NCBI GenBank assembly: GCA_002385575.1
Contig: DGDS01000002.1
Location: forward strand, 29,371 to 93,370
DNA: 64,000 nucleotides
Source of the DNA: Bacillales bacterium UBA3946
GTDB lineage: Bacteria; Bacillota_I; Bacilli_A; ML615J-28; CAG-698
Reading direction: 5' to 3'
Shown here: piece after piece, positions 7,231 to 60,600 of the stretch
How the letters are laid out: the number at the start of each line of letters is the position of its first letter
How positions within the stretch are numbered: position 1 is the first letter of the stretch
Notes under the pieces: model-generated
Databases searched by the model: none
Told to the model about the DNA's origin: nothing
Seen by the model: only the letters and a program-made list of their open reading frames with translations
Position numbers and translations under genes: made by a program

Positions 7231-7270
7231 AAAAAAACAGTCAAGTTCAAAAGCGAACTTGACTGTTTTT
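7231..7270. terminator. Bidirectional rho-independent terminator between the KapD-like gene and rnj
   Basis: 12-bp perfect stem ACAGTCAAGTTC/GAACTTGACTGT, flanked by an A-run on one side and a T-run on the other. Confidence 0.7.
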
Positions 7271-8963: not shown

Positions 8964-9065
8964 TTTCCTTATCTCCTTAAACAAAAAGTGATGGTTTGCC
9001 GGAAAAGTTGTTTTTCCAAGCGGATTGTGATACAATTCAATCTGGATTTAGAAAGCGAGTAGGAT

Positions 9066-19939: not shown

Positions 19940-20080
19940 AAACAGAAAAATTAAGGTGAAGCTAAAAGGCTTTGCCTTTTTGTTTTGTCATGACATATTG
20001 AGGATTCATGCAATAGGGTTACCCGCTTTTTTGTGTTGCCCAATTTTGTCTTCTTTCATACTATAATACGAGGTGAAAAA

Positions 20081-21346
20081 GTGGAGAAATTCCATTTAAT
20101 CGGCATCAAGGGAACGGGGATGTCCGCCCTGGCGGGAATCCTGAAGGATCTGGGACATGTCGTCACGGGGAGCGACGTTGCGGAGGATTTCTTTACCGCC
20201 AAGAAACTCAAGGCGAAGAAAATCAGGACGCTGCCGTTTTCCGAAGCCAATATCCGTCCCGGTAAGACATATATCGCGAGCAGTTGTTATCGGGACGATC
20301 ATGTCGAAGTCGCCGCCGTGAAAAACCAGGGGCTCCCTTTTTATTACTACCATGAATTCATCGAAAGTTTTTTTACCGCACCGAAAATCGGCGTTTCCGG
20401 AACCCATGGGAAGACGACGACCACAAGCCTGATCGCGAAGTTCTTCGAGGATCGGAAGGTAACGTATCTGATCGGGGATGGGACGGGAAAGGGAACCAAG
20501 GACGCGGAATATTTCATATTCGAAGCCTGCGAATATCGCAACCATCTTTTGCAATACCGGTGTGATTACCTGGTCATCAACAATATCGATTTCGACCACC
20601 CGGACTTTTTCCAATCGATCGACGCGGTGCTTGCAACTTTTCAAAAGGCGGCGGATAATTCCCGGCACCTGATCATCAACGCCGACGACGAGCATTGCGC
20701 GAAGATCGCGCACCCCGATAAAACGACCTTCGGCATGAACGAAGCCGATGTCCGCGGCCGGATCATCGAGGAACACAGGGCAGGATATATCCTGGAAGCG
20801 GATGTTAAGGGAGAAAAATACGAGTACTATCTTCCGTTTGCCGGGACGCACATGATTTACAATTTCCTCGCGGCCCTGACCGTCTGTTACCTGCACGGGA
20901 TTGATTTGCCGTCGCTTCAGGATAAACTGCTCGATTACCAGCGGCCTTCCCGGCGCATGGAGGAGTACTTCTATTACGACAACGTCATCATCGACGATTA
21001 TGCCCATCATCCGCGGGAAATCAAGATGTGCCTGGACGCCATCCGGCAAAGCTACCCGGACAAGGAAATCGTCGTCATCTTCCAGCCCCATACCTACAGC
21101 CGCACCATGCAAATGAAAAAAGCATTCCGGGAAGCCCTGTCCGGGGTCAAACTATATCTTGCCAGGACGTTTTCCTCAAAGCGGGAAGCCGAGAACCGGC
21201 ACCTTGAGACCGCCGTCTTCCGTATTTTTCCCGGGGCGAAAAGGTTCCATGAGAAAAGCTTGCGGGAAATCCGAAAACTCCGCAATTCGGTGATACTGTT
21301 CCTGGGCGCCGGAAACATTGACAAATATATCAAACAATTGTTATGA
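20081..21346 (+). CDS. murC: UDP-N-acetylmuramate--L-alanine ligase
   Basis: HLIGIKGTGMSALA P-loop and Mur ligase domains. GTG start at 20081, preceded by a TATAAT box and an AGGTGA RBS. Confidence 0.9.
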   Translation: MEKFHLIGIKGTGMSALAGILKDLGHVVTGSDVAEDFFTAKKLKAKKIRTLPFSEANIRPGKTYIASSCYRDDHVEVAAVKNQGLPFYYYHEFIESFFTAPKIGVSGTHGKTTTTSLIAKFFEDRKVTYLIGDGTGKGTKDAEYFIFEACEYRNHLLQYRCDYLVINNIDFDHPDFFQSIDAVLATFQKAADNSRHLIINADDEHCAKIAHPDKTTFGMNEADVRGRIIEEHRAGYILEADVKGEKYEYYLPFAGTHMIYNFLAALTVCYLHGIDLPSLQDKLLDYQRPSRRMEEYFYYDNVIIDDYAHHPREIKMCLDAIRQSYPDKEIVVIFQPHTYSRTMQMKKAFREALSGVKLYLARTFSSKREAENRHLETAVFRIFPGAKRFHEKSLREIRKLRNSVILFLGAGNIDKYIKQLL

Positions 21347-23736: not shown

Positions 23737-23770
23737 AAAGAAAAAGGTGATTCACTCACCTTTTTTTATT
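23737..23770. terminator. Bidirectional terminator between the convergent tyrS and trpS
   Basis: AAAAAGGTGATTCACTCACCTTTTTTT. Confidence 0.7.
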
Positions 23771-24767
23771 GCCGGCGGGTCAGGCCGACTTTTTGGTACA
23801 CTTCCCTGATTTTCTTGCCGGCGACTTCCCTGGCGTATTCGCGACCGGCGTCGAGGATTTCGTCGAGCTTCCCGGAAGCGATGATTTCATTGTATCTTTC
23901 CTGGATGGCGCCGACTGTTTGGACGACGATTTCGGCTAGATCGCCTTTGAAGGCGCCGTAGCTACCGGAAGCGTATTTTTGCTCGATTTCCTTATAGGAA
24001 AGACCCGTCAGGGCCGAATAGATGGTCATGAGGTTCGAGATGCCCGGTTTTTTCGCCTTGTTGTAGTGGATCTTGTTCTCAGAATCGGTGACGGCGCTCT
24101 TGATCTTCTTTCTGATGGAGTCAAGCGGCTCGAGGAGGAAGATGCAGCCGCGGTTGTTCGCTTCCGACTTATCCATCTTCTTGGTCGGATCCTGCAGATC
24201 CATGATTCGCGCTCCGGTCTCGGTCATCAATACGTCGGGGACGACGAAGGTCTCGCCATAGCGGTTATTGAAGCGCTCGGCAAGGTTGCGGGCAAGTTCC
24301 AGGTGCTGTTTCTGGTCTTCGCCGACGGGAACGTAGTTTGCATCGTAAAGCAATATGTCGGCAGCCATCAGCGCCGGGTAATTGAAGAGGGCGACCGGGA
24401 TTCCGCCCTTTTGTTTTTTCGCCTTGTCCTTATATTGCGTCATCCGCTCCAATTCGCCCATGTAAGCAAGCGACTGAAGCACGTAGCACAATTCTGCGTG
24501 CTCCGGGACTTCGGATTGGACGAAAAATGACGCGTTATCCATCGTCACTCCGCACGCCAGATACAGCGCCGCGACGATCCTTATATTTTTGCGCAGTTCT
24601 TCGACGTCGTGCGGAACGGTGATGGCGTGCAGGTCGGCGACGAAGAACACGAAATGATAGTCCTTCATTTCTTTTTGCAGGCGCGAGAAATTCCTGAGCG
24701 CGCCGATATAATTACCCAGGGTCGGGATTCCGGACGGTTTGACCCCCGATAACACCACTTTTTTCAT
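23766..24767 (-). CDS. trpS: Tryptophanyl-tRNA synthetase
   Basis: Co-linear with B. subtilis TrpS (PSGIPTLGNYIGA..., KMDKSE). The promoter TTGACA-17-TATAAT lies on the minus strand at about 24840-24870, with a short leader and no T-box. Confidence 0.9.
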   Translation of the reverse strand: MKKVVLSGVKPSGIPTLGNYIGALRNFSRLQKEMKDYHFVFFVADLHAITVPHDVEELRKNIRIVAALYLACGVTMDNASFFVQSEVPEHAELCYVLQSLAYMGELERMTQYKDKAKKQKGGIPVALFNYPALMAADILLYDANYVPVGEDQKQHLELARNLAERFNNRYGETFVVPDVLMTETGARIMDLQDPTKKMDKSEANNRGCIFLLEPLDSIRKKIKSAVTDSENKIHYNKAKKPGISNLMTIYSALTGLSYKEIEQKYASGSYGAFKGDLAEIVVQTVGAIQERYNEIIASGKLDEILDAGREYAREVAGKKIREVYQKVGLTRRQ

Positions 24768-25020
24768 AAACAGGCCTCTATTACTCCTCTGGTACGGTTG
24801 TTAGTCGTGTATTTACAATATATTATAATCGATGGCGGGGTTGTTGTCAAACTTTTATTTGCAATCGACAGTGAAAGCGTTTAACAAGTGATTTTAGGGC
24901 GTTCGAAACGCAATATAAAACGCTTACAAAAAAAATTCTTCTTGACATTGCATATATAAGTTATTATAATAATATAAAAACCTTCACAGGATAATAAAAA
25001 AGGGAGGAAAAAAAGAAGTC

Positions 25021-28000
25021 ATGAAAAAGCTTTTTGGCGTATTTATGCTGCTTGTTGCCGCATTCGCCTTATACGCTTGCGATGATAAAGCAGGCGATGA
25101 CGAATTCAGCGGCGTGCTTATCGAAGGCCGAAGCCATTTTCTTCTGACTGACGAAGGCGTCGAGTTAGAAGCAAAATTGATTGGCAGCGATGAAAATGTG
25201 GAATTCACTTGGAAATCATCTGATACAAGTGTTTTGGAAGTTGCCCCAAAGGAGGACGGCGACAATACAGATACCTCGATCGGTGTCGTGAAGCCGAAGA
25301 AACTTGGGAAAGCGAAGTTGACAGTAACAGTAAAAGGCAAGAAAAACCTGCAAGGGTTCCTCAATGTTGAGGTTAAAGAGGAACTGGTAAAACCCGAAAA
25401 GGTAGTGCTGTACTACTTAGGCGGATACGAAGCATTCCTCGATTCCGAAGTCCCGTTTGCGGCTAAGGTCTATCCCGAAGGAGCAGACCCGCAGATTTAC
25501 TGGGAAACGTCCGACGAAGTGAGTGCTCCCATCCAGGCGCAGGGCTTGTCGGTATTGTCTTCGTTCATGCTGGATAACAGCATTAACTGGTCTTTCGCGA
25601 AGATCACGGGTAAGATTACCGGTGAAGTAACCGTGACGGCCTATGCCGCCGGCGCCGAAGTGTTCCCGGATCCGGAAGATGCCGAGAAACCTTTGGTTGT
25701 TGAGGCTTCGGTTGATGTCAACATTCTCAGCCATATTGACGTCGAAGGCGATTCCGAAATCAAAGTTGGCGGTACTGCCCAATTATCAGCGACCGTCAAC
25801 AACACAATAGAATATAAAAACGAAATCACCTGGTCTTCTTCCGACGCGACGGTAGCCAGCGTTGATGCGAACGGTCTTGTCACTGCGAAAAAGATTGGAA
25901 AAGCCGTCATCACGGCTTCAGCGCCGGCGAGATTTGGCTCCGGCACGAAATCGGTGTTGTATCCGATCGAAGTTTTGACGGAGTATGATGCTGATGAATT
26001 GGCCGGCGGCGCGGAAGGCATCAGGGTAAGCTTCAAGTATGCCAGCGCCGAAGTCAAAGCCAAGATCCTGGCCGCTCTCGAAAGACATTTGATTAACAGA
26101 GGCGCCAGTATTCCTGTCATCAACAACAGTGGCGTGGTCGTTTATTCCGAACGCGTAACGTTACCGACGGAGAAATATGTCCCGTTGATGGGCTTTGGCG
26201 CGTTGTACGGTGAATTGGCCGACAACGACGTTGAACACCCGTATCGCACGTATACAACGGCCGACCCGAAGACCTTCAACCATCTGATGTATAAAGACTC
26301 CATCGAGTCTGACATGTTGAGCCTGATCGAGTTGTCGTTGTTCTCGTTCGAATTTGTCGACAGTGATGATAACGGCTTATACGACAGTTATGCATTGCTC
26401 CCGTCTGCAGCAGCGAAGTTTGCCGAACCGGTTGAATTTAATGAAGAAACCGGTGAATGGGAAGTCATCGAAGACTTCGATTATGACAACGACGCTGCCG
26501 AAGCCTGGAAGATCACGTTGCGCGACAACCTGTTCTGGGTTGACAATAACGGACACCAGCAAGGACAGATTACGGCCGAAGACTTCGTCTATACCTATCA
26601 GATGGCGCTTGACCCCGTGCAACAGAACTCCCGCGCGAACTACTTCTACAGCGCAGCCGGTCTGCCGATTAAGAACGCTGAGGCCTATTACAAGCAATGG
26701 GACGATAAGAAGACCCCCCATGCTCCAGCCAAGGGTCTTGCGGACGGCAATTACGAGTATGTCAAGTGGAGCGAAGTTGGCGTTCACAAGGTTGACGATC
26801 TTGCGTTCGTCCTTGAATTGAGCCAGGCTTATCAGCAATGGGATATCCATTACAACACGAGCGGCTTCCTCTTCAGCCCGGTTTACAAACCGTTGTTCGA
26901 AGCTGGGTTTGGTAATGATCCCAACCGCAAGTCGACCAACTATGGCTCAGCGCTTGATAAGTTCATGAGCAGTGGTCCGTACTATCTGTCTTATCGCGAG
27001 ACTGAGAAAGAGTACAGATTCACGAAGAACCAGCACTATACCTACAACGAAGGCTGCCCGGAAATGACGCCTGCGGCGATCAAGTACACGATCGTTAAAG
27101 ACGCCAATGCGGCGATTGAGCTCTTTGAAAAAGATCAATTGGATTCCGTGAGCATTCCGGCAACCCACTATGACCAATATAAGAACCATGCGGGCTTGAA
27201 GAAGGCCCCGGGTGCCACTTCGTTCCGTTTCACCGTTAACCGTATGACGCAGGCCGAGTCGGATCTGTTATTCGGTATCGGTGCTTGGAAAGTGAAACCC
27301 ATTCTCCAGGAAGATGATTTCATGTGGGCGCTCTACTTTGCAATGGACCGCAACGAAATCGAGAACATCAGTAAGACCTATACGCCCGAACAATTCTACT
27401 TCACACAGGCGTACGTCGTCGACCCGAAAGCTGGTGAAGCGTACCGCGATACTGATGCCGGTAAGCAAGTTGGCGTAGGAATCTTCAAAGACGACGTCAA
27501 CCTGAGTACCGAAACCTTAGGCGTGAACAAAGAATTGGCAACTAGCTACTATGTCAAAGCTCTTGACAGCATGATTGCGAAAGGCGTGATTACCGAAGGT
27601 ACGGCGAGCAAGAAGACGGTCATCGAAGTCGAGATCGCGGCGTTCGATAGCGTCACTTGGACCAACATCATTGAATACCTTGCGGAAGACATGGCTGCGA
27701 CATTCAATGCTCAGACCAAATATCCGAACATTGAAATCAAGTTCATCCCCTCTCCGCAACCCGGTATGAACGTCTACTATGAGAAGCAGATGAAAGGCCG
27801 TTTCGACCTTGCGCTTGCTGGTATCTCCGGCGGTCTGCTTGACCCGATTGGCTTCATGGAATGCTTCTGCGATGACAACCGCAGCGGTCTGATGCTGAGC
27901 TGGGGCTTCAATTCTCACATCCCGGCAATCCTGATCGATCTTGACTTGGATGGCGACGGTAAGAATGACGGACCGAAGTACTGGTCGTTTGATGCCCTGT

Positions 28001-28065
28001 ATTCGGCTTGCGCCGGATCGGTCTTCGTCAAGATGGGCGTCGAAGCTGAAGAACCCAAAGCTTAG
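25021..28065 (+). CDS. Giant lipoprotein: N-terminal Ig-like (Big_2-type) domains fused to an Opp/Dpp-family (cluster C, SBP_bac_5) solute-binding domain
   Basis: Lipobox LYAC|D. Three segments of about 90 aa with Big_2-like signatures (KLGKAKLTVTV, GEVTVTAYAAG, KIGKAVITASA), followed by a roughly 680-aa SBP_bac_5-like domain. First gene of the ABC operon, with a TTGACA-16-TATAAT promoter at about 24943-24970. Confidence 0.7.
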   Translation: MKKLFGVFMLLVAAFALYACDDKAGDDEFSGVLIEGRSHFLLTDEGVELEAKLIGSDENVEFTWKSSDTSVLEVAPKEDGDNTDTSIGVVKPKKLGKAKLTVTVKGKKNLQGFLNVEVKEELVKPEKVVLYYLGGYEAFLDSEVPFAAKVYPEGADPQIYWETSDEVSAPIQAQGLSVLSSFMLDNSINWSFAKITGKITGEVTVTAYAAGAEVFPDPEDAEKPLVVEASVDVNILSHIDVEGDSEIKVGGTAQLSATVNNTIEYKNEITWSSSDATVASVDANGLVTAKKIGKAVITASAPARFGSGTKSVLYPIEVLTEYDADELAGGAEGIRVSFKYASAEVKAKILAALERHLINRGASIPVINNSGVVVYSERVTLPTEKYVPLMGFGALYGELADNDVEHPYRTYTTADPKTFNHLMYKDSIESDMLSLIELSLFSFEFVDSDDNGLYDSYALLPSAAAKFAEPVEFNEETGEWEVIEDFDYDNDAAEAWKITLRDNLFWVDNNGHQQGQITAEDFVYTYQMALDPVQQNSRANYFYSAAGLPIKNAEAYYKQWDDKKTPHAPAKGLADGNYEYVKWSEVGVHKVDDLAFVLELSQAYQQWDIHYNTSGFLFSPVYKPLFEAGFGNDPNRKSTNYGSALDKFMSSGPYYLSYRETEKEYRFTKNQHYTYNEGCPEMTPAAIKYTIVKDANAAIELFEKDQLDSVSIPATHYDQYKNHAGLKKAPGATSFRFTVNRMTQAESDLLFGIGAWKVKPILQEDDFMWALYFAMDRNEIENISKTYTPEQFYFTQAYVVDPKAGEAYRDTDAGKQVGVGIFKDDVNLSTETLGVNKELATSYYVKALDSMIAKGVITEGTASKKTVIEVEIAAFDSVTWTNIIEYLAEDMAATFNAQTKYPNIEIKFIPSPQPGMNVYYEKQMKGRFDLALAGISGGLLDPIGFMECFCDDNRSGLMLSWGFNSHIPAILIDLDLDGDGKNDGPKYWSFDALYSACAGSVFVKMGVEAEEPKA

Positions 28066-28107
28066 AAATAAGCATAGCGGTAATCAAAGAAAGTGATGAA
28101 TAAATTA

Positions 28108-28150
28108 ACGGGCCAACAAAACTATTTTGTTGGCTCGTTATTTTACAGGA
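28108..28150 (+). terminator. Intra-operon attenuator hairpin after the SBP gene
   Basis: GGGCCAACAAAACTATTTTGTTGGCTCG followed by TTATTTT. This is a typical partial terminator that gives SBP excess over the permeases. Confidence 0.55.
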
Positions 28151-28157
28151 GGAATTC

Positions 28158-29102
28158 ATGATCAATTATATTCTTAAAAGGCTTGTCCTGGTCTTCATTA
28201 CCCTATTCATCATTTTGACGTTGTCCTTCTTCCTCATAAAATTATTACCGGACAATACCGAGATGAGTTATTTAATGCAGGAGATGACGCCCGATGACTA
28301 TCGGTTGATGAGACAAAGGTGGGGCTATGACCAACCGTTGTTTGTCCAGTATTTTTATTGGTTGAAAAACATCATTCTGCATTGGGACTGGGGCGTTTCA
28401 ACGCATAAGAGAATAGGAGTTAATACTTTTACCATATTAACGGAAAAATTACCGATTACGATAAGATTGAATCTGATATCGCTTGTTTTTTCAATTCCGT
28501 TGGGGCTGTTGTTCGGAATCGTGGCCGCCTTAAGAAAAAACAAGCCGATCGATTATATAATCTCCGTTTTCGTAATCTTGTTCATATCCATACCTTCATT
28601 CGTTATCGTAACGGTGCTGATGCTGAATGCCGCGGATATGGGACTGCCGATCCAGTATCGACCTAGCGACCAGGTCACGATGAAGGATATGGTAATACCG
28701 GTGCTTTCGTTATCATTCGGCCCGATTGCCACGTTGACGCGTTACACGCGGGCTGAGTTAACGGAAGTGCTGACATCTGACTTTATCCTGCTGGCTCGGA
28801 CAAAAGGCCTTAACCGTTTCCACTCGACGGTAAGACACGCGTTGCGTAACTCGATGGTTCCCCTGGTACCGATCATCATCGGGAACTTTATCGGCATTTT
28901 GTTCGGGTCGCTGGTCATCGAACGCGTTTACGGCGTTCCCGGGGTTGCCGGCATATTGATTGAAGCAATCGACATCAAGGACTATAACCTGACGATGACG
29001 GCCCTGGCTTTCTACACGATAATCGGGTTGATCGCGACTTTGATCGTCGACATGACTTACGGCATCGTCGATCCGCGAATCAGAATGGGGAGTAGAAAAT
29101 GA
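28158..29102 (+). CDS. Oligopeptide ABC transporter permease (OppB/DppB-like)
   Basis: 6-TM BPD_transp_1 fold, 314 aa. Confidence 0.8.
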   Translation: MINYILKRLVLVFITLFIILTLSFFLIKLLPDNTEMSYLMQEMTPDDYRLMRQRWGYDQPLFVQYFYWLKNIILHWDWGVSTHKRIGVNTFTILTEKLPITIRLNLISLVFSIPLGLLFGIVAALRKNKPIDYIISVFVILFISIPSFVIVTVLMLNAADMGLPIQYRPSDQVTMKDMVIPVLSLSFGPIATLTRYTRAELTEVLTSDFILLARTKGLNRFHSTVRHALRNSMVPLVPIIIGNFIGILFGSLVIERVYGVPGVAGILIEAIDIKDYNLTMTALAFYTIIGLIATLIVDMTYGIVDPRIRMGSRK

Positions 29103-30433
29103 TGAACGAATACAAACACATCGACGCCAGCAAATTTGAATTCGTCCAAATGGACGTCAAGATTTTCGATAAGAAATTCGAGACTAAAGCCATTGGGTAT
29201 TTTGGTGACGCCGTTCGCCGGTTTGTCCGTAACAAATCGAGCGTGATGGGGTTCGTCATTCTCGTGCTGATCATTATCATGTCGATTATCGGTCCGTACA
29301 TCGGCGGTCACGGCGTTCATAAGCAGCACATGCATTATGACCAATTGCCAGCAAAGATTCCCCTGTTGGAGAAGATCGGCGTTACGAACGGGACACGTAA
29401 ATATGAAAACCAGAACGTCCAGTACATCAAGAGTTTCTACGAAGTCGATCCCGCTGACCCGGATTTCAAAAATTACTTTTTCAAGGAATGCATCACTTGG
29501 CAGTCCGGAAAACGCCGGGTCCGGCAAGGTAACGTAGAAGTTGATGTTGTCGATTTTACCTATGATGTATATAAACATAAATCCCTTCCCTATATCAGCG
29601 GTTGGATAGGCAAAACCAAATACGATGAGTTGACGGCGAAGGGAGCGATAATCGGCGATCCCATCAAAGTCAACTTGTCCCATCCCGAGTTTCCCCAATA
29701 TGTCGTGCAAATAGATCCGCTTAAGGAATACGGGTTCAAAAGCTCGGAAAGCATATACTTCCTTTTTGGAACCGACCAATTGGGCCGTGATATGTGGTCC
29801 AGGGTTTGGAGTGGTACCAGGGTTTCGCTTTTGATCGGATTGTTCGTTGCCCTGGTCACGATCACGGTCGGGGTAATTTACGGTTCGATCTCCGGATATT
29901 ACGGCGGAACGATTGATCTGGTAATGCAAAGGTTCGCCGAAATCCTTAGCGGAATTCCATGGATCGCGATCATGACGCTGGTCGTGCTGTACCTGGGAGC
30001 GAACCTGTTCTCTATCGCCCTGGCATTGGTTTTGACCAGCTGGATAGGAACATCCAACATGGTGCGATCGCAATTTTATCGATATAAAGGACGGGAATAC
30101 GTCCTGGCGGCGCGGACGCTGGGCGCCAAGGACCGCCGGCTGATCTTCAAACACATCCTTCCCAACGCCCTGGGACCGATCGTTACCTCCTCGGTGCTGA
30201 TCATCCCCAGCGCGATTTTCTCGGAATCGATGATCTCCTACCTGGGTTTGGGTATCAGTAAAGGTGTTTCCATTGGTAAACTCCTTGCTGACGGTCAGGC
30301 GGTAGGTATAACGACATATCCCTACCTGACGATCTTCCCCGCGATCATTATCTCCCTGCTGATGATATCCTTCAACTTATTCGGAAACGGGTTGCGCGAC
30401 GCGCTCAATCCTTCCCTGAGAGGAGTTGAATAA
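29099..30433 (+). CDS. Oligopeptide ABC transporter permease (OppC/DppC-like) with a long extracytoplasmic N-terminal loop
   Basis: 444 aa. A single N-terminal TM is followed by a roughly 180-aa loop and then an OppC-type permease core. Confidence 0.8.
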   Translation: MMNEYKHIDASKFEFVQMDVKIFDKKFETKAIGYFGDAVRRFVRNKSSVMGFVILVLIIIMSIIGPYIGGHGVHKQHMHYDQLPAKIPLLEKIGVTNGTRKYENQNVQYIKSFYEVDPADPDFKNYFFKECITWQSGKRRVRQGNVEVDVVDFTYDVYKHKSLPYISGWIGKTKYDELTAKGAIIGDPIKVNLSHPEFPQYVVQIDPLKEYGFKSSESIYFLFGTDQLGRDMWSRVWSGTRVSLLIGLFVALVTITVGVIYGSISGYYGGTIDLVMQRFAEILSGIPWIAIMTLVVLYLGANLFSIALALVLTSWIGTSNMVRSQFYRYKGREYVLAARTLGAKDRRLIFKHILPNALGPIVTSSVLIIPSAIFSESMISYLGLGISKGVSIGKLLADGQAVGITTYPYLTIFPAIIISLLMISFNLFGNGLRDALNPSLRGVE

Positions 30434-31481
30434 GATGCAACTGCCAGAAGATGTGATCCTTCGCGTTGAAGATTTGACGGTATCCTTCCGCACTCCCGAC
30501 GGCCTCGTGCGCGCGGTCCGCGGTGTAAACTTCGACCTCAAGCGCGGCGAGACTCTCTGCATCGTCGGCGAATCAGGAAGCGGTAAATCGGTCACGAGCC
30601 GGGCGATCATGGGCATCCTCGCCGGAAACGCCATTATCGAAGGCGGACATATTTATTATCGCGATTACGACCTGGTCCAGGTCAAGGAAAAAGACTTTCA
30701 TAAACTGCGGGGATCGATGATCGGGATGATCTTCCAGGACCCGCTGTCCAGCTTGAACCCGATCATGAAGATCGGCAAGCAAATCACCGAAGCGCTGATT
30801 CTTAAGAACAAGATGACGAGGGCGGAAGCGAAAGCCCGCGCCCTCGAACTGATGCGCGAGGTCGGCATTCCCGAACCGGAAAAAAGGTTCCATCAGTATC
30901 CGTTTCATTTTTCCGGCGGAATGCGTCAGCGCATCGTCATCGCCATCGCTTTGGCCATGAATCCGGAGATTCTGATTTGCGACGAGCCGACGACCGCGCT
31001 GGACGTCACGATCCAGGCGCAGATCCTCGACCTGATCAACGAACTCAAGCACAACCGCGGCTTGTCGATCATCTTCATCACCCATGACCTGGGTGTCGTC
31101 GCCAACATGGCGGACCGGATCGCCGTTATGTATGCCGGAAAAATCGTCGAATACGGGAAGTCGGAAGAAGTGTTCTATGACTGCCGGCATCCGTACACAT
31201 GGGCGCTTTTGGAGAGCATGCCGGCTTTGGAGAAAACCAAGGGCCAGCTTAATGCCATTCCCGGAACGCCGCCCAACATGCTCTTCCCGCCGAAAGGCGA
31301 CGCGTTCGCGCCTCGGAACCGTTACGCAATGAAGATCGATTTCGAGGAGGAACCGCCGTTTTTCAAGGTTTCCGACACGCATTACGCGGCCACGTGGCTT
31401 TTGCATCCCGACGCGCCAAAAGTCGAATCACCGATTAAGGGCCGTTATTTCATAAGCAAGGGGGCGAAATCCAATGACTGA
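30426..31481 (+). CDS. Oligopeptide ABC transporter ATP-binding protein (OppD-like)
   Basis: Walker A GESGSGKS, LSGGMRQR signature, Walker B ILICDEPTTALD, and an oligopeptide-type C-terminal domain. Confidence 0.9.
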   Translation: MNKMQLPEDVILRVEDLTVSFRTPDGLVRAVRGVNFDLKRGETLCIVGESGSGKSVTSRAIMGILAGNAIIEGGHIYYRDYDLVQVKEKDFHKLRGSMIGMIFQDPLSSLNPIMKIGKQITEALILKNKMTRAEAKARALELMREVGIPEPEKRFHQYPFHFSGGMRQRIVIAIALAMNPEILICDEPTTALDVTIQAQILDLINELKHNRGLSIIFITHDLGVVANMADRIAVMYAGKIVEYGKSEEVFYDCRHPYTWALLESMPALEKTKGQLNAIPGTPPNMLFPPKGDAFAPRNRYAMKIDFEEEPPFFKVSDTHYAATWLLHPDAPKVESPIKGRYFISKGAKSND

Positions 31482-32646
31482 GCCGAGAGAAAAGATCCTT
31501 GAACTGAAAAACGTCCGCCTGTATTTTTCGAGCGGTTTCGGGAAAAGAAAAGTCGTCGTCAAAGCGGTGCACAACATCAGCTTCGACGTATACAAGGGCG
31601 AGGTTTTCGGACTCGTGGGCGAGTCGGGGTGCGGTAAAACCACCACCGGCCGCGCGATAATCAAACTGTACAATTTGACCGATGGTCAGATATATTTTAA
31701 AAGCCGTCTCATCAGCGAAGGCAACCGCGGTAAGAATCTTGAAATCAAACGACTGAGAAAAGAAATCAGGGATAAAAAGAAAGAAACCGCCAATGTGATT
31801 GCCGAGTTGAAGGGCGAAGGAGAAATGGCCAACGTTGAGAAAATCAATACGGAAATCAACGAGGCAAAAGCGGAACTGAACAGGTTTATTGCCGAACAGA
31901 AGCAAAAGATTGCCCATCTGCGTCGGCTTAAAGCCGCGACCAGACGCGCAAACGTCCGCGATTCGAAGTTGATGTCGAAAATGCAGATGATTTTCCAGGA
32001 TCCGATCGATTCCCTCAACCCTCGTATGACGGTTAAGGAAATCATATCCGAAGGTTTGATTATCAACGGTATTAAGGATAAGGAGTTCATTGAACAGGAA
32101 GTCAACCGAGTTTTGGAATTGGTCGGACTGCTTCCCGATCATGCGAACCGTTATCCGCACGAATTCAGCGGCGGCCAGCGGCAGCGCATCGGGATCGCCC
32201 GCGCCCTGGTCGTCAATCCGGAAATGATCATCGCCGATGAACCGATCAGCGCCCTCGACGTTTCCATTCAGGCGCAGATCATCAACCTGCTGAATGAATT
32301 ACGGAAAAAATTCGGCTTGACGATCTTGTTCATCGCCCATAACCTGTCGGTGGTCAAATTCTTCTGCGACCGGATCGCCGTCATGTATTATGGGCGCGTC
32401 GTGGAAATCGCCGATTCCGAGGAGTTGTTTAAACATCCCCTGCATCCTTATACCAAGGCGCTTTTATCGGCGGTGCCGCTGCCCGATCCCGATTACGAAA
32501 AAACCCGGAAACGGATCGCTTATAATCCCTCGCTCCGCAAATTCACCGTCGATAAACCGAAAATGGTTGAGATTTATCCCGGACATTTCGTATATGCAAG
32601 CGAGGAAGAGGTTAAGGCTTATCGCAAAGAATTGAAACTAGAGTAA
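31474..32646 (+). CDS. Oligopeptide ABC transporter ATP-binding protein (OppF-like) with a ~95-aa charged coiled-coil insertion between Walker A and the Q-loop
   Basis: Walker A GESGCGKTT, FSGGQRQR, and Walker B IIADEPISALD. The K/E-rich insertion lies at about nt 31690-31970. Confidence 0.85.
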   Translation: MTEPREKILELKNVRLYFSSGFGKRKVVVKAVHNISFDVYKGEVFGLVGESGCGKTTTGRAIIKLYNLTDGQIYFKSRLISEGNRGKNLEIKRLRKEIRDKKKETANVIAELKGEGEMANVEKINTEINEAKAELNRFIAEQKQKIAHLRRLKAATRRANVRDSKLMSKMQMIFQDPIDSLNPRMTVKEIISEGLIINGIKDKEFIEQEVNRVLELVGLLPDHANRYPHEFSGGQRQRIGIARALVVNPEMIIADEPISALDVSIQAQIINLLNELRKKFGLTILFIAHNLSVVKFFCDRIAVMYYGRVVEIADSEELFKHPLHPYTKALLSAVPLPDPDYEKTRKRIAYNPSLRKFTVDKPKMVEIYPGHFVYASEEEVKAYRKELKLE

Positions 32647-32662
32647 GAACCGGTGATCTTAC

Positions 32663-33232
32663 ATGTACCGTTATAAAAAATATTCTGAGGAACAGATGTT
32701 TTTGAAGATCGCGATTCTCGTCATGGGAGGCATAGCCTTCCTGTTGGGCTTCGCGCGGGCGCTGAAACTGGGAATCGAGTATATGATCCAGGAAGGCCAG
32801 AACCCGTTGTTCGTGCCGATAACCGATTATTTTACCGGCTTCAATCTGGCCTTCAACGTTCCCACGGGCAAGGTAGGATACCAGCATTACGTCCCGATGG
32901 CGACGGTCAGTTATCTTACCCCGTTGGTATTCAGCGTTTTACCGATGATCAAGATAAAAAAGGTACCGCGCTACATTCCGTACTTTATCGCCGCCGTGGT
33001 TCTAATCATCATCCCGATATTTTATGTTATCAAACTTCAGGAAGCCATCGGCGATTTGGAGCGGATCATCGAGATTGATTCGCTTCTCATCGGTAAGAAA
33101 TATCGCAATCTCCAAATCGAGGTTCAAACCGAGGCGATCATGCACGCCGCCTTGACGGTCATTACCGGGTTCCTCAGTATTGCCGCCGGGGTACTGGCAT
33201 TACTGACGCGCGAACGGAGAGTTCGGAAATGA
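32663..33232 (+). CDS. Hypothetical integral membrane protein
   Basis: 189 aa with four predicted TM helices and no recognised motif. Confidence 0.4.
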   Translation: MYRYKKYSEEQMFLKIAILVMGGIAFLLGFARALKLGIEYMIQEGQNPLFVPITDYFTGFNLAFNVPTGKVGYQHYVPMATVSYLTPLVFSVLPMIKIKKVPRYIPYFIAAVVLIIIPIFYVIKLQEAIGDLERIIEIDSLLIGKKYRNLQIEVQTEAIMHAALTVITGFLSIAAGVLALLTRERRVRK

Positions 33233-33597
33233 CGAAATGGATTGTTCCCAATGTAATCGCTTTGTTGATATTCGCTTTCCTTGTGTTGCTTTTGAAGGAT
33301 AAGCCCATGCTTTACGAGGGCACTTTCTTAGTCGATGCCTTTGTAATCACCGGGTTTTTCATCTGGCTGGGGGCGGGCATCGTCTTCATCGATCAGGAAG
33401 GCGTCTTTGACATCGCGATTTACGGGTTAAAAAGGATCGTTCGTCTTTTCAAAAAAAGCGTTGACGACGACTTTCCCGATTCTTATTACGATTACAGTGA
33501 AGGACGGAAAAGCCGTAAACGCGTCACTTTGTACCCGACCCTGATCGTCGGGACGGTATATGTCCTCGTCGGCATCATCATCTATTTGGTTCAATGA
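33229..33597 (+). CDS. Small membrane protein (DUF3899-like)
   Basis: 122 aa, TM-loop-TM pattern, overlapping the upstream stop. Confidence 0.4.
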   Translation: MTKWIVPNVIALLIFAFLVLLLKDKPMLYEGTFLVDAFVITGFFIWLGAGIVFIDQEGVFDIAIYGLKRIVRLFKKSVDDDFPDSYYDYSEGRKSRKRVTLYPTLIVGTVYVLVGIIIYLVQ

Positions 33598-33711
33598 TAG
33601 AGAAAAAAGTGTATTCATAAGGATACACTTTTTTTTACTTTATCAGATAAAATATTTACATCAAGGCAAAAAAATGCTAAAATATTTGTGAACAGAAAGG
33701 GAATGGTGAAA

Positions 33712-34152
33712 ATGATTAAATTGTATACTTCACCCAGTTGTTCTTCATGCCGAAAGGTTAAAAAGTATTTTGAGAAGTATAACATCAAATACGAGGAAAA
33801 AAACATCTTCACGTCCCCCATTTCCCGCGAAGATATTTTTAAAATGCTTGTGAAGAGCGAGAACGGATTTGAGGACATCATTTCCACGCGCTCGAAAGTC
33901 TTTAAGGAAAAGGGCGTCAGCCTCTATGATATGAAAACCCAGGACTTGATCGATTTTATCATCAAAAATCCGAGCGTCCTGAAAAGGCCGATCATCGTCA
34001 CCGACTATGAAATCCAGGTCGGGTATAACGATGACGACATCGAGTTGTTTTTACCGCCGGAAGTAAGGGATCTGGATTGTGAGCACTGCTTCAAACCACA
34101 CGAGCCGAATGAGGAATGCGATTACGTTAAAAGCATAAAGTTTTCAAAATAA
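33712..34152 (+). CDS. spx: Spx/ArsC-family global redox regulator with an atypical Cys/His-containing C-terminal tail
   Basis: CSSC redox motif, ISTRSKVF, RPIIV and QVGYNDDDIELFLP are co-linear with B. subtilis Spx. The tail DLDCEHCFKPHEPNEECDY replaces the canonical ...LAN degradation tail. Start is ATG at 33712. Confidence 0.8.
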   Translation: MIKLYTSPSCSSCRKVKKYFEKYNIKYEEKNIFTSPISREDIFKMLVKSENGFEDIISTRSKVFKEKGVSLYDMKTQDLIDFIIKNPSVLKRPIIVTDYEIQVGYNDDDIELFLPPEVRDLDCEHCFKPHEPNEECDYVKSIKFSK

Positions 34153-34178
34153 AATCGGACTTCAAGAGTCCGATTTTT
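34145..34178. terminator. Bidirectional terminator between spx and the CYTH gene
   Basis: AAAATCGGACTTCAAGAGTCCGATTTTTATTT. Confidence 0.7.
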
Positions 34179-34181
34179 ATT

Positions 34182-34745
34182 TCAGTGCATTTTCTTGTAC
34201 GCCTTGAAGGCGCGTTTTATTTTTTTCTCGGTCTTTTTGTATTGTAATTCGAATTCGCTAATCAGTTTCACGAATTCCCGCAGATTGTGCGAGCTCGTCT
34301 CGTATATCAGCTCATAATCGGTTTGGCCAAGATATTGGCTTTTATCAATATATAAAATGCCGTTTTTATATGCAAAAAACAATCTTAAAGTGGAAAGGCT
34401 GAGAAAGTTGAAAATCTTTTGATCACCGATCAAAGGAATCAACTCGTTATATATCTCGCCTTCCGGGACCATTCCCGTTTCCCGGATTTCCTCGAAGGTT
34501 TCCTTGGTTATTGGCAGTTGGAATTCCTGGAGATTATAGCCTTTCTTCTTTTTAAAAACAAGGGTAAAGTCGTCGCGCTCCTTAACCCGGAGCGAGGCGT
34601 CGAGCGCCTTTAAGGAAAATCTCTTGGTATCGAAATAATGGTTGGTCTGCATATCCATTCGATTGCCCTTGAATTTTTCCATCAGGCGGTTATATTCTTC
34701 TTCGGTTAATAGTGTTCTGAATTCTACCAGATTTCCTATTTGCAT
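34182..34745 (-). CDS. yjbK: CYTH-domain (triphosphate tunnel metalloenzyme) protein, YjbK-like
   Basis: CYTH fold with acidic/basic tunnel residues. It is divergent from the alarmone-synthetase/ppnK pair, as in the B. subtilis yjbK-yjbM-ppnK region. Confidence 0.6.
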   Translation of the reverse strand: MQIGNLVEFRTLLTEEEYNRLMEKFKGNRMDMQTNHYFDTKRFSLKALDASLRVKERDDFTLVFKKKKGYNLQEFQLPITKETFEEIRETGMVPEGEIYNELIPLIGDQKIFNFLSLSTLRLFFAYKNGILYIDKSQYLGQTDYELIYETSSHNLREFVKLISEFELQYKKTEKKIKRAFKAYKKMH

Positions 34746-34976
34746 GTTATCCTCCGGATCATAATTCTTGCATTAATATATTATACATAATAATTTATAA
34801 AATGCAAGTATTGCGAAATAAAAGCGGGTTTATTATATTATTGTCTTTTTTGCGAATAAATACAATTTATCTACCGAAATATCAAAACCATTATTTTCAA
34901 TAATTAACCTTGAGAAACACGCGAAATCAAGGTATAATATATCTGGGCGTATAATCCGTCCCGGAAAGGTTGGTAT

Positions 34977-35657
34977 ATGGTTAACGAAAATCGCTTTTGG
35001 CATGCGTTTCTCTTGCCGTATGAGTTGGCAGTCAGCGGTTTCATTATCAAACTCGAGTCGCTCCGGAAAGAATTCTTGTTTAAAAAGGTCAACAATCCGA
35101 TTGAGAGCATTTCCGGACGCGTGAAGACGGTAAGCAGTATACTGGAAAAAGCGGAACGGTTGGGGATTGATTTTCATAATATTGCCGAGGGAATATATGA
35201 TATCGCCGGCATTCGCATCATATGCAAGTACCAGCAGGATGTATACAAGGTTTATGAATTACTGAAAGCGCGGAAAGACATCGAGATCTTTCTTGTCAAG
35301 GATTATATTAAAGACCCCAAGCCAAGCGGGTATCGCTCATTGCACTTGATAACAAAATACGAGGTCGAGATGGTCGACGGACGGGTCCCGATCAACATCG
35401 AGTTCCAGATCCGGACTTACGCGATGCATTTGTGGGCGTCGATCGAACACTCATTGAAATACAAGTATTACCGGAACATCCCGGAAGAGATCAAGGAGCG
35501 CCTGCTCGCCGCCTCGAAGGTCACGGCTCAGCTGGATGAAGAGATGGCGGGGATCAGGCAGTCGATCGACGAGATCATCGTGGATAAGGTCCGGCCGGAG
35601 GAGTACGAACTGGACAACATCGGGTTGTTACTGGATAATATCAACAAAAGGTGGTAA
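34977..35657 (+). CDS. Small alarmone synthetase (RelQ/RelP-type GTP pyrophosphokinase, YjbM-like)
   Basis: RelA/SpoT synthetase-domain motifs (DIAGIRIIC, GYRSLHL, EFQIRT), 226 aa, single domain. Confidence 0.8.
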   Translation: MVNENRFWHAFLLPYELAVSGFIIKLESLRKEFLFKKVNNPIESISGRVKTVSSILEKAERLGIDFHNIAEGIYDIAGIRIICKYQQDVYKVYELLKARKDIEIFLVKDYIKDPKPSGYRSLHLITKYEVEMVDGRVPINIEFQIRTYAMHLWASIEHSLKYKYYRNIPEEIKERLLAASKVTAQLDEEMAGIRQSIDEIIVDKVRPEEYELDNIGLLLDNINKRW

Positions 35658-35658
35658 C

Positions 35659-36405
35659 ATGAAATACGCCTGTTACGGTAAATGCGTGAATATCGAGTTC
35701 CCTTTCGTTCGCGACGATGAAGCCCCGGACGTGGTGTTTTCCTTTGGCGGCGACGGGACGATGCTTGGCGCGATCCATAAATACGAACAGCGCCTCGACA
35801 TAACGCGATTCATTGGCATCAATACCGGGAAACTGGGTTTCTATACCGATTTCGATATCGGCGAGGTCGGGGAAATCTTCCGGATGCTTTCCGAAGGTGA
35901 TTTCGATTTGTTCGAACTTAACCTGATGGAGTATCGGCTTGCCGGCGCAAATGATGTCAAAACCGGAATCGTCATAAACGATCTGGCGTTGATAAATCCG
36001 ATCAACACGCAAATCATGGACATATACATCAACGGGAAGTTTTTCGAAACGATCCGGGGAACGGGGGTCCTGATCTCACCGCCGGGCGGGAGCACCGCCT
36101 ATAACAAATCGCTGGGCGGAAGCATCATCGATCCAACGATCAAGGCGATCCAGTTGACCGAGGCGGCGCCGATCAGTAACCGCGTCTACCGGAGTCTGGC
36201 TTCGCCATTGGTTTTATCGCAAGCGGCGGATATCGAACTGCACCCGCATTGCGCCCGCAACCTCTATGTGACGGTAGATGGTGAAATGCTTGATTGCGCT
36301 GATTTGAAAACAATATCGGCGCGGCTTTCCGAACGGACCGCGACCTTCATCGTCAAGAAGGAAACGAGTTTCTTCGACCGGGTAAAAAGAGCCTTCATAG
36401 AATGA
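35659..36405 (+). CDS. ppnK: NAD kinase
   Basis: GGDGT motif and an NE/DGxxxxT region. ATG at 35659, four nucleotides after the upstream stop. Confidence 0.9.
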   Translation: MKYACYGKCVNIEFPFVRDDEAPDVVFSFGGDGTMLGAIHKYEQRLDITRFIGINTGKLGFYTDFDIGEVGEIFRMLSEGDFDLFELNLMEYRLAGANDVKTGIVINDLALINPINTQIMDIYINGKFFETIRGTGVLISPPGGSTAYNKSLGGSIIDPTIKAIQLTEAAPISNRVYRSLASPLVLSQAADIELHPHCARNLYVTVDGEMLDCADLKTISARLSERTATFIVKKETSFFDRVKRAFIE

Positions 36406-36408
36406 AAA

Positions 36409-36438
36409 AAAGGGATTGAATCGCAATCCCTATTTTTT
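36409..36438. terminator. Bidirectional terminator between ppnK and clpP
   Basis: AAAAAAGGGATTGAATCGCAATCCCTATTTTTTTT. Confidence 0.75.
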
Positions 36439-37023
36439 TTGCGGCTCCTTTTCCAGAATCGCATCGATTATTCCGTACTCCAGGGCTTCCTCGGCGAACA
36501 TGTAATTGTCGCGATCGGTGTCGTTGTTGATTTGCTCGATGCTCTTGCCGGTATATTTCGCAAGCAGTTTGTTCAGTCTTTCCCTGGTCCGCACGATATG
36601 CTTCGCCGCAATCTGGATTTCCGTGGCCTGCCCCTGGGCGCCGCCCAGCGGCTGGTGGATCAGGATCTCGCTGTTGGGCAGAGCGAAGCGTTTGCCTTTC
36701 TCGCCGCTTGCGAGGATGAAGGCCGCCATCGACGCCGCCAGCCCGATGCAGATTGTCGAAACCGGGGGCGCGATCAGACGCATCGTGTCGTGGATGGCCA
36801 TGCCGGCCGTCACCGATCCGCCGATCGAGTTGATGTAAAGGTAAATCTCCTTTTCGCTGTCCTCGGCGGCCAGAAACAACAACTGTGCGACGATGCTATT
36901 GGCCAGCGAATCCTGGATCTCGCCGCAGAGCAGGATGATCCGGTCTTTCAGTAACCGGGAGTAAATATCATAAGAACGTTCTCCGAACGAAGTTCGTTCG
37001 ATGACAATCGGTGTGTAGTACAT
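36430..37023 (-). CDS. clpP: ATP-dependent Clp protease proteolytic subunit
   Basis: Canonical ClpP sequence (RIILLCGEI..., catalytic Ser in GGSVTAG and catalytic His). Confidence 0.95.
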
Positions 37024-38261: not shown

Positions 38262-38500
38262 AATACCAAAGCGATGATGAAGAAGGGAGTAATGGCGCTC
38301 TTTTTGCTCCAGGGAATTGGGACCGCGACTGGAAGTCCCATGCAAAACTCGTCATGAAATTCGTCTTCGGAGCGGTTCTAGACAAACCCGCAGAAATGCG
38401 TTATCAAGATTGAGGGCAACATTTTTTTATGTTGAACTAAGGTGGTACCGCGGAGATTCCGTCCTTAACGTGAACGTTAAGGACTTTTTATTTTTCTAGG
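38262..38500 (+). promoter_or_regulatory. T-box riboswitch leader (Phe specifier UUC) regulating pheS-pheT
   Basis: Promoter TTGCGA-17-TATAAT at about 38226-38254. Stem I region with GAAATTCG (UUC codon). Conserved T-box sequence AACTAAGGTGGTACCGCGG at about 38437-38455. Terminator GTCCTTAACG-tgaa-CGTTAAGGAC followed by TTTTTATTTTT directly before the pheS RBS. Confidence 0.8.
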
Positions 38501-38508
38501 AGGTTGTT

Positions 38509-39531
38509 ATGGAAAAACAGTTGGACGCCTTAAAGGATGAATTAAGGCAAGCGCTGGCCGGCGTCGAAAACATGAACCAGTTGAACGAGACCAAGGCCAG
38601 GTATCTGGGGAAGAAAAGCCCGCTGCAGGATCTGATGAAACTGATGCCGGGACTGGATGTCGAGGAAAGAAAGAATCTCGGCCGACAGGTGAACGAGTTT
38701 AAAAACTACGCCGGGGAATTGATCGCGAAAAAGGCGCGGGAACTGCAGGAATTGAAAGTGCGAGAGCAGCTGGAAAAAGATGCGATCGACATTACCCTGC
38801 CCGGCAAGGCCTTTTCCATCGGCCGCCGGCACCTGCTTGACCAGACCTGGGAGGAACTCGAAGACATCTTTATCGGCCTGGGGTTCCAGATTGCCGAGGG
38901 TCCGGAAATCGAACTTGACTTGTATAACTTTGAAATGCTTAACACCCCCAAGGGACACCCGGCGCGGGACATGCAGGACTCGTTCTACATTGACGAGAAC
39001 AACCTGCTCAGGACCCAGACTTCCCCGGTGCAGATCAGGACGTTGATTGCGGCGAAGGGAGATCCGGTAAAGATCGTCTGTCCCGGCAAGGTCTACCGCC
39101 GCGACAACGACGATGCCACCCATTCGCACCAGTTCATGCAATTGGAGGGGCTCGTCGTGGATAAAAACATCACGATGGCCGATTTAAAGGGAACGCTGCG
39201 GCTTCTTATGCGGAAATTATTCGGCGACCGGTTGGAAATCCGGTTCCGTCCGTCGTTCTTCCCGTTCACCGAACCGAGCGTCGAAGTCGAGGTCACATGC
39301 TTCAAGTGCTATGGTAAAGGTTGTCCTTTGTGCAAGCACAGTGGCTGGATCGAATTGCTCGGAGCGGGCATGGTCCATCCCAACGTTTTAAGAGGGACCG
39401 GCTACGACCCGAAGATTTATCAGGGATTTGCTTTCGGCATGGGCATCGAACGCGTCGTGATGTTCCGCCACGGCATTGACGATATCAGGCTCCTGTACGG
39501 CAACGATCCGCGCTTCTTGGAGCAGTTTTAG
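38509..39531 (+). CDS. pheS: Phenylalanyl-tRNA synthetase alpha subunit
   Basis: Class II aaRS motifs (FRPSFFPFTEPS, GMGIERV). A zinc-ribbon-like CFKCYGKGCPLC insert is present. Confidence 0.95.
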   Translation: MEKQLDALKDELRQALAGVENMNQLNETKARYLGKKSPLQDLMKLMPGLDVEERKNLGRQVNEFKNYAGELIAKKARELQELKVREQLEKDAIDITLPGKAFSIGRRHLLDQTWEELEDIFIGLGFQIAEGPEIELDLYNFEMLNTPKGHPARDMQDSFYIDENNLLRTQTSPVQIRTLIAAKGDPVKIVCPGKVYRRDNDDATHSHQFMQLEGLVVDKNITMADLKGTLRLLMRKLFGDRLEIRFRPSFFPFTEPSVEVEVTCFKCYGKGCPLCKHSGWIELLGAGMVHPNVLRGTGYDPKIYQGFAFGMGIERVVMFRHGIDDIRLLYGNDPRFLEQF

Positions 39532-60557: not shown

Positions 60558-60586
60558 ACCATAGTCATCTATGGTTTTTTCATTAT
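60558..60586 (+). terminator. Terminator after rpsR
   Basis: AAACCATAGTCATCTATGGTTTTTTC. Confidence 0.7.
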
Positions 60587-60600
60587 ACAGAGGAGAGAAT

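Follow-up and report, generated by a model that had tools for sequence, protein, structure and literature searches.

Does an oligopeptide importer in which the substrate-binding protein (SBP), one permease and one ATPase all carry large additions serve a specialised purpose, or is it the ordinary Opp system of its lineage? The question is raised by a five-gene opp operon located in the 64-kb stretch of contig DGDS01000002.1 (assembly GCA_002385575.1, labelled Bacillales bacterium UBA3946) analysed in this study, which is hereafter called the window and to whose first letter all positions refer. In many Firmicutes and Mollicutes, Opp is the main supply route of nitrogen and amino acids and also a signalling route. 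The original prediction, made from the sequence alone, took the operon for a specialised or surface-tethered system for the uptake of peptides or cell-wall fragments, rather than for the housekeeping Opp. Our in silico analyses agree with a surface-tethered peptide importer, but they point to the lineage's ordinary Opp and not to a specialised one. We consider it probable that an uncultured, walled lineage of Bacilli uses this operon as its general, housekeeping importer of oligopeptides, the three elaborations being clade-typical add-ons.

This reading is based on the conservation of the five-gene order and of all three elaborations across the clade, on a gene neighbourhood (trpS-opp-spx-CYTH-RelA_SpoT-NAD kinase) that matches the one we take to be that of opp in Bacillus subtilis and Listeria, and on the two permeases, whose best models are Opp3B and Opp3C. 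The same observations go against the earlier contrast with the housekeeping Opp.

Organization and conservation of the operon

Five co-oriented open reading frames (ORFs) were confirmed between 25021 and 32646, all of them, with every feature described within them, on the forward strand. The first (25021-28065) encodes an OppA-type substrate-binding lipoprotein of 1014 amino acids (aa). It is followed by oppB (28158-29102), which encodes a permease of ordinary size (314 aa), oppC (29099-30433; permease, 444 aa), oppD (30426-31481; ATPase, 351 aa, with TTG as start codon) and oppF (31474-32646; ATPase, 390 aa), and these four genes abut or overlap. The assignments come from the ORF list and Pfam, together with homologues for the SBP, NCBIfam for OppB and both ATPases, and motif alignment for OppF. 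Pfam identified SBP_bac_5 at residues 490-953 of the SBP (94 bits, with a cutoff of 32), BPD_transp_1 in OppB, OppC_N (34-84) and BPD_transp_1 (258-441) in OppC, and oligo_HPY plus ABC_tran in both OppD and OppF. The components of an Opp/Dpp-type importer were thus all found, namely a family-5 SBP, two BPD_transp_1 permeases, the second one with OppC_N, and two intact oligo_HPY ATPases. By these family relationships the locus is, as had been predicted, a putative complete Opp-type ATP-binding cassette (ABC) importer, presumably for oligopeptides. No paralogous copy of the opp genes was found elsewhere in the 64-kb window.

A sequence scan located a promoter-like site at 24942-24970 (forward strand), about 50 nucleotides (nt) upstream of the SBP start, in which TTGACA, a 17-nt spacer and TATAAT reproduce the sigma-70 consensus perfectly (12 matches out of 12). 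A ribosome-binding site, GGGAGG, lies at about 25003, ahead of the SBP gene. This consensus promoter is predicted to drive the whole five-gene operon.

The operon was compared with nine related loci (L001-L009) from metagenome-assembled genomes (MAGs) titled Bacilli bacterium, uncultured Mollicutes, Acholeplasmatales bacterium DTU067 and 'Staphylococcus sp. CAG:324'. All nine contain the same five genes in the same order, and in all of them the SBP is large (993-1136 aa), OppC is enlarged (443-622 aa) and OppF carries the insertion (390-434 aa).

Between the SBP gene and oppB, a 16-bp stem-loop was identified (28106-28140), followed by a U-rich tail and then by the ribosome-binding site of oppB. 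It folds with a ΔG of −29.5 kcal/mol (z −6.2) and none of 200 shuffled sequences folded equally well, which bears out the hairpin that had been noticed after the SBP gene. It must be noted that a pattern scan placed it on the minus strand, the sequence being palindromic and T-rich on either side. Since there is no convergent gene, it is the plus strand that matters here. The nine related loci (9/9) all have, in the same intergenic position, a stem-loop with a T-rich tail, which belongs to at least three unrelated sequence types, and this conservation of position despite differing sequences argues for a function. In ABC operons that begin with the SBP gene, such hairpins are usually read as partial termination or 3' stabilisation. 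Here, the hairpin may act as a partial intrinsic terminator or as an mRNA-stabilising element, and it would yield an excess of SBP transcript over those of the membrane components.

Genomic position and family models

The order of genes at the locus is trpS, opp, spx, CYTH, a RelA_SpoT small alarmone synthetase (relQ) and NAD kinase (ppnK), followed by ClpP. The gene trpS (23766-24767, reverse strand) forms the upstream flank, while the downstream flank (33688-37023) comprises spx (ArsC family), the CYTH gene (reverse strand), the RelA_SpoT synthetase, NAD kinase and ClpP (reverse strand). In the related loci, spx is found 3' of oppF in eight out of nine and trpS lies nearby in five out of nine. 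We take the order in B. subtilis to be trpS-oppABCDF-yjbB-yjbC-spx ... yjbK (CYTH)-yjbM (relQ)-ppnKA, from which only the tag of oppA was confirmed, and that in Listeria is presumably trpS-opp-spxA1-mecA. The confirmed tag is BSU11430 (PMC3064580). No mecA-like gene was found between spx and the CYTH gene in the window. If these orders are right, the operon occupies the place of the ancestral housekeeping Opp and is its positional orthologue.

Among NCBIfam models, the best for the permeases were those of Staphylococcus aureus Opp3B and Opp3C, at scores under their cutoffs (240 versus 480 and 347 versus 450, respectively). For OppD and OppF, the best models were those of Mycoplasma mycoides (MMSYN1), also with scores under the cutoffs. 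Against the MMSYN1_0165-0168 and ABC_Mplas_LP models, the scores and cutoffs were 506/740 for OppD, 410/800 for OppF, 120/350 for OppB, 210/370 for OppC and 22.6/100 for the SBP. The window also encodes PepV and M29 peptidases, which are compatible with a housekeeping role of the importer.

The substrate-binding protein and its predicted stalk

The SBP starts with a signal peptide and lipobox (25021-25080), whose sequence is MKKLFGVFMLLVAAFALYA-C20, ending in FALYA-C20. L17 and C20 are invariant in 15 homologues and, despite an atypical Tyr at −2, the N-terminus conforms to that of a bacterial lipoprotein. Beyond it, the AlphaFold2 (AF2) model shows residues 30-320 as three all-beta domains, with a predicted local distance difference test (pLDDT) mostly between 70 and 92 except in a loop at about 167-187. 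In Foldseek, this N-terminal stretch matched tandem immunoglobulin (Ig) arrays, such as those of NUP210, invasin, filamin Ig3-5, cadherins and S-layer proteins. The first domain (D1, residues 31-119; 25111-25377) is Ig-like in fold and gave a weak match to Big_2 (PF02368) of 15 bits (E 0.023), which is under the gathering threshold of 22.8. The second (D2, residues 127-236; 25399-25728) is a beta-sandwich that contains the low-confidence loop (167-187), and the Pfam scan gave no match for it. The third (D3, residues 239-319; 25735-25977) is a bona fide Big_2 domain, matched at 247-301 with 47-48 bits (E 1.2e-12 / 2.4e-12), above the same threshold. Both Pfam families anticipated for this protein, Big_2 and SBP_bac_5, were therefore found and its Ig-like N-terminal extension was corroborated by model and fold search. 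Nevertheless, of the three Big_2-like domains originally proposed, all hold as Ig-like folds and only D3 is Big_2 by sequence. Lipobox and model together support a lipid-anchored protein predicted to stand on a three-domain Ig-like stalk.

The rest of the protein is a divergent OppA-type (family 5, cluster C) binding module of about 685 aa (26008-28062), recognised by Pfam, profile search and Foldseek. The AF2 model was built on a 15-sequence alignment and is poor in this module, with pLDDT below 50 over much of residues 330-1014. The best Foldseek matches of this C-terminal part were the pneumococcal oligopeptide binders AliD, AmiA, AliB and AliC.

When only the binding module was used as query, an exhaustive HMMER search retrieved, at a cutoff of E ≤ 1e-3, 815 representatives (clustered at 50%), 139 of them at E ≤ 1e-30. 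The few named members are proteins of MAGs, Izemoplasmatales among them. The proteins of this family have between about 650 and 2672 aa in total, with the module at widely varying offsets. A lipobox-like, lipoprotein-type N-terminus was present in 134 out of 151 members, and the space between the Cys and the module was filled, over very different lengths, by Ig arrays, by apparently coiled-coil-like sequence or by low-complexity linkers rich in T, S, P and D. Big_2 domains (as many as four), Flg_new repeats and Bact_surface_Ig-like, Big_3 or fn3 domains occurred in the members sampled. Given that relatives fill the same position with unrelated, interchangeable modules of variable length, the N-terminal Ig-like region would be better explained as a spacer or stalk than as a specific ligand-binding domain.

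In three giant members of the family, P0376 (2672 aa), P0410 (2106 aa) and P0483 (2488 aa), the binding module lies in the middle of the protein, flanked by Flg_new and Bact_surface_Ig-like repeats and by long stretches without any domain match.

The predicted ectodomain of OppC

In OppC, 135 aa lie between the conserved residues P88 and G224. The equivalent segment has 123-230 aa in relatives of the clade, and homologues from Paenibacillus, Alkaliphilus and Tissierella have 63-68 aa there. The AF2 model of OppC (75 sequences; pLDDT 82.8, predicted template modelling score 0.75) shows transmembrane helices TM1 at 46-68 and TM2 at 232-268 and, between them, a folded alpha/beta domain at residues 89-225 approximately (29363-29773) with pLDDT of 84-94. 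Alignment and hydrophobicity delimit the same domain, and no hydrophobic segment was found in residues 73-236. The long extracellular loop that had been read from the sequence is thus a folded domain in the model. Since OppC and DppC structures have N-in topology, this domain is presumably extracytoplasmic. Pfam gave nothing significant for the loop, and in a structure comparison the domain was missing from all solved Opp/Dpp permeases.

The ATPases and the OppF insertion

In OppF, 118 aa separate the end of Walker A from the Q-loop, compared with 48 in the OppD of the window and 40-49 in canonical fused homologues. From this difference, the net insertion in OppF amounts to about 75 aa, located at residues 85-160 approximately (31726-31953) by spacing, alignment and composition. 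A K/E-rich insertion at this site had been foreseen, although with about 95 aa and limits at 31690-31970 that proved too wide. In an alignment to Mycobacterium tuberculosis OppD, residues 28-73 and 165-339 of OppF fall on contiguous parts of the nucleotide-binding domain (NBD). Walker A, Q-loop, signature, Walker B and H-loop are intact in OppF. The catalytic motifs are likewise intact in OppD, which has canonical spacing and no insertion.

The OppF insertion is rich in K, E and R, 43% of its residues are charged and it contains no proline. Two heptad-patterned segments (88-112 and 115-150) are split by KGEGEM, a pattern that suggests a two-helix antiparallel hairpin. Pfam returned only compositional, coiled-coil-type matches for it (E about 0.01). 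Of the 120 best OppF homologues, about 114 have the insertion, those of Izemoplasmatales included, with spacings mostly of 108-132 and a few of 183-184, so that its length is conserved and its sequence poorly so.

Piecewise scans aligned OppF residues 6-81 with positions 2-73 of the MMSYN1_0168 model (Mycoplasma OppF) and residues 199-383 with positions 462-648 of its 649. This model has therefore an expansion of about 350 positions at the same site as the insertion described here. In the model of Mycoplasma OppD (MMSYN1_0167), the equivalent site (positions 70 to 297) is expanded by about 226 positions. No sequence match was found between the OppF insertion and the Mycoplasma expansion. Considering its site, the insertion is probably a short version of the Mollicutes-type NBD insertion.

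Host lineage and distribution of the elaborations

The original prediction regarded the OppF insertion as typical of Mollicutes and not of Bacillales. The first part agrees with the site shared with MMSYN1_0168. As to the second, judged by the titles of the related records, the host belongs to an uncultured lineage of the class Bacilli, which has its closest named relatives under the labels Mollicutes, Acholeplasmatales or Izemoplasmatales, and it is not a member of Bacillales, so the argument that the insertion is out of place falls; in this clade it is the norm.

An Izemoplasmatales operon encodes an SBP of at least 729 aa, an OppC with a loop of 148 aa, an OppF with a spacing of 214 and an OppD with a spacing of 48. 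An insertion between Walker A and Q-loop had been expected in this OppD and was ruled out by its canonical spacing. The same protein (L013/L014, 4806-6476) has 556 aa, and its additional 200 aa approximately are elsewhere, probably C-terminal, unlike those of the Mycoplasma OppD model. The additions to SBP, OppC and OppF co-occur in the clade, while stalk and OppF insertion are missing in a Paenibacillus relative. Judged from the sequences compared, the three elaborations are clade-typical and appear together along the branch leading towards Mollicutes.

A MurC-like ligase gene (20033-21346, forward strand) lies 3.7 kb upstream of the operon and scored 319 bits for MurC (cutoff 335) and 107 bits for Mpl. 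An SH3b-NlpC/P60 hydrolase is encoded at 60571-62550 (forward strand). Because of these two genes, the host probably has peptidoglycan and a wall. The presence of wall genes alongside Mollicutes-like Opp ATPases is relevant to the question of where on this branch the wall was lost.

Proposed function and alternative explanations

As a housekeeping importer, the system would operate as follows. The lipid-anchored SBP would catch extracellular peptides and dock on OppBC, ATP hydrolysis by OppD and OppF would power their import, and once inside they would be broken down by cytoplasmic peptidases like PepV and the M29 enzyme encoded nearby. The three Ig-like domains would form a rigid stalk of about 10 nm from the anchor to the binding module, allowing the SBP to work away from the membrane. 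By analogy with the P2 domain of MalF, the OppC ectodomain would most likely be a docking platform for the oversized SBP. The OppF insertion, which probably protrudes from the peripheral beta-subdomain as a hairpin of helices, may have a structural or regulatory role.

Several points weigh against this reading and must be considered. A single-sequence search showed no more than a remote similarity of the SBP module to characterised SBPs (best PDB E 1e-4), and its pocket is poorly modelled. The window covers 64 kb, and a second, plainer Opp may exist elsewhere in the genome. The roles of the stalk, the docking platform and the hairpin are all those that we infer. Big_2 domains are also typical of adhesins, the synteny argument depends largely on the order that we take B. 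subtilis to have, and the placement of the host at order level depends on the record titles of its relatives.

The co-occurrence of the three elaborations lends itself to a bolder explanation, which we put forward tentatively and regard as rather unlikely. SBP stalk, OppC ectodomain and OppF hairpin could be a co-evolved package and represent a distinct architectural class of type I ABC importer, in which a rigid Ig stalk, variable in length, holds the binding module at a distance from the membrane and a dedicated ectodomain of the permease receives it. In this class, the OppF hairpin would be the minimal form of the Mollicutes insertions, with a specific role in regulation or assembly.

An explanation that we judge improbable is that of a dual adhesin and transporter, whose Ig domains would bind to host or particle surfaces, transport being secondary. 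It is suggested by the Big_2 and other Ig-like domains, typical of intimin and invasin, by the Flg_new and Bact_surface_Ig-like domains of relatives, and by the precedent of Mycoplasma hominis OppA (P100), a multifunctional protein with cytoadhesion and ecto-ATPase functions (PMC3179953). Nevertheless, no Walker A motif (regular expression [AG]x4GK[ST]) was found in the 1014 aa of the SBP, so the ecto-ATPase feature is missing and an ecto-ATPase SBP was rejected. Moreover, the replacement of the N-terminal module by low-complexity or coiled-coil-like sequence in relatives fits a spacer better, and a complete, intact transporter is conserved alongside the SBP. The Ig domains may still have an adhesive side-function.

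It is also quite improbable that the operon serves the recycling of muropeptides, like MppA-OppBCDF of Escherichia coli or DppE of B. subtilis, with the stalk setting the SBP within the wall, even if the host probably contains peptidoglycan. A search of the PDB with the 15-sequence profile of the SBP matched OppA (6npo, 7e-22), DppE, a binder of murein tripeptide (1.8e-21), OppA again (8are, 8.5e-19) and MppA (1.6e-14). The profile places the SBP closest to peptide binders of the OppA, DppE and MppA type and the fold search closest to pneumococcal AmiA/Ali, and generic OppA proteins were as good as the muropeptide binders or better. In addition, the Mur ligase of the window is of the MurC and not of the Mpl type (319 and 107 bits, respectively), and recycling based on Mpl was rejected on that account. 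The operon contains no genes of the ldcA, ampG or nagZ type, and the same SBP family and architecture are found in Izemoplasmatales, which we take to be wall-less. Nothing was found that speaks for muropeptide specificity, and the uptake of cell-wall fragments proposed in the original prediction is thus unsupported.

That the operon imports quorum-sensing pheromones and not nutrients, like PrgZ or Ami/Ali, is very improbable, because the best single-sequence PDB match of the binding module (PrgZ, E 1e-4) and the best fold matches (pneumococcal AmiA/AliA-D) reflect a likeness that OppA-type SBPs of Gram-positive bacteria share in general, the operon has neither an RRNPP-type regulator nor a pheromone gene next to it, and known pheromone uptake goes through the general Opp permease anyway.

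Other genes of the window

A small membrane protein of 122 aa with a DUF3899 match in Pfam is encoded at 33229-33597 (forward strand). Its gene adjoins the opp operon in all nine related loci (9/9). In the window and in L001 and L002 it lies 3' of oppF, but in L003-L009 it directly precedes the SBP gene. Given that the linkage is kept despite this rearrangement, the protein may be functionally tied to the transporter. Between oppF and this gene, a predicted membrane ORF of 189 aa (32663-33232, forward strand) starts 17 nt past the oppF stop and may be co-transcribed with the operon. Neither Pfam nor NCBIfam gave a match for it, and among the related loci only the two closest have it.

Further downstream, a T-box leader (38265-38469, forward strand) scored 105 bits, above the Rfam gathering score, directly 5' of pheS (38509-39531; tRNA-synt_2d), which is followed by an ORF of 795 aa, probably pheT. 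An ORF of 573 aa (7341-9062, forward strand) gave no Pfam or NCBIfam match and is overlapped along nearly all its length by one of 588 aa on the reverse strand (7269-9035). The window also contains two P-type ATPase genes, both on the forward strand (14000-16456 and 55992-59426). In the unusually long product of the latter (1144 aa), the E1-E2 and hydrolase domains are confined to residues 187-641 approximately, and the C-terminal part of about 500 aa has no match.

Comparison with known systems

The operon shares with the housekeeping OppABCDF systems of Bacilli (B. subtilis Spo0K/Opp, Listeria Opp, S. aureus Opp3 and Lactococcus lactis Opp) the order oppA-B-C-D-F, a lipoprotein SBP of family 5, permeases with OppC_N and BPD_transp_1 and two oligo_HPY ATPases. 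The surroundings, with trpS, spx, CYTH, RelQ and NAD kinase, are also shared, if the order in B. subtilis is as given above. It differs from them in an SBP about 1.8 times larger, with an Ig-like stalk and a very divergent module, in the OppC ectodomain of about 135 aa, in the OppF insertion of about 75 aa and in scores that are all under the NCBIfam equivalog cutoffs. The type of transporter and its likely class of substrate are ordinary, and nothing established is overturned.

With the Opp of Mollicutes (MMSYN1_0165-0169 of JCVI-syn3A and M. hominis P100) it has in common an oversized SBP lipoprotein and the site of the OppF insertion. In contrast, the insertion is far shorter, OppD has none of the Mycoplasma type, the SBP has no ecto-ATPase Walker motif, and the host encodes MurC and probably has a wall. 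To our knowledge, the function of the insertion in the OppF ATPase of Mollicutes has never been explained, and the short version described here could be a tractable model for what the NBD insertions of Mollicutes do. In JCVI-syn3A, the homologous Opp is a quasi-essential route of peptide supply, and its genes are in a different order, from oppB to oppA (PMC6609329).

Among cultured organisms, the closest system is a five-gene Opp-like operon of Paenibacillus thiaminolyticus (L011/L012). Its OppC is 43-44% identical to that of the window over the full length and has an intermediate loop of 67 aa, and its SBP is related to the binding module (27% identity, E 2e-36). Unlike the system of the window, this SBP has 594 aa and no Ig stalk, its OppF (317 aa, spacing 44) has no insertion, and the operon lies outside the trpS-spx neighbourhood.

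The P2 domain of MalF in the maltose transporter of E. coli offers a functional analogy only, as a large folded extracytoplasmic domain in one permease. In MalFGK2, a type I ABC importer, this domain docks the binding protein. The structure of that complex (2r6g) was among the fold matches for the permease transmembrane domain. However, the OppC domain is inserted in a different loop of a permease from a different family, and there is no detectable homology between the two.

No report on an Ig-domain OppA, the combination of Big_2 and SBP_bac_5, an OppC extracellular domain or the OppF insertions of Mollicutes was found in the literature searched, in which this architecture is uncharacterised, yet it is widespread in metagenomic data. 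The NBD motifs align with those of the solved E. coli OppBCDF (8z21) and DppABCDF (8z1v-8z1z) and M. tuberculosis OppABCD (8j5q), all of which are without OppC ectodomain, OppF insertion and stalked SBP. All Opp/Dpp structures solved so far are of the compact forms found in proteobacteria and mycobacteria, whereas the present clade offers a permease ectodomain seen in no solved homologue and a natural series of binding proteins with spacers from about 100 to more than 1000 residues. In this regard, the system could be a model of how tethered binding proteins reach their permeases and dock on them in walled bacteria with a single membrane.

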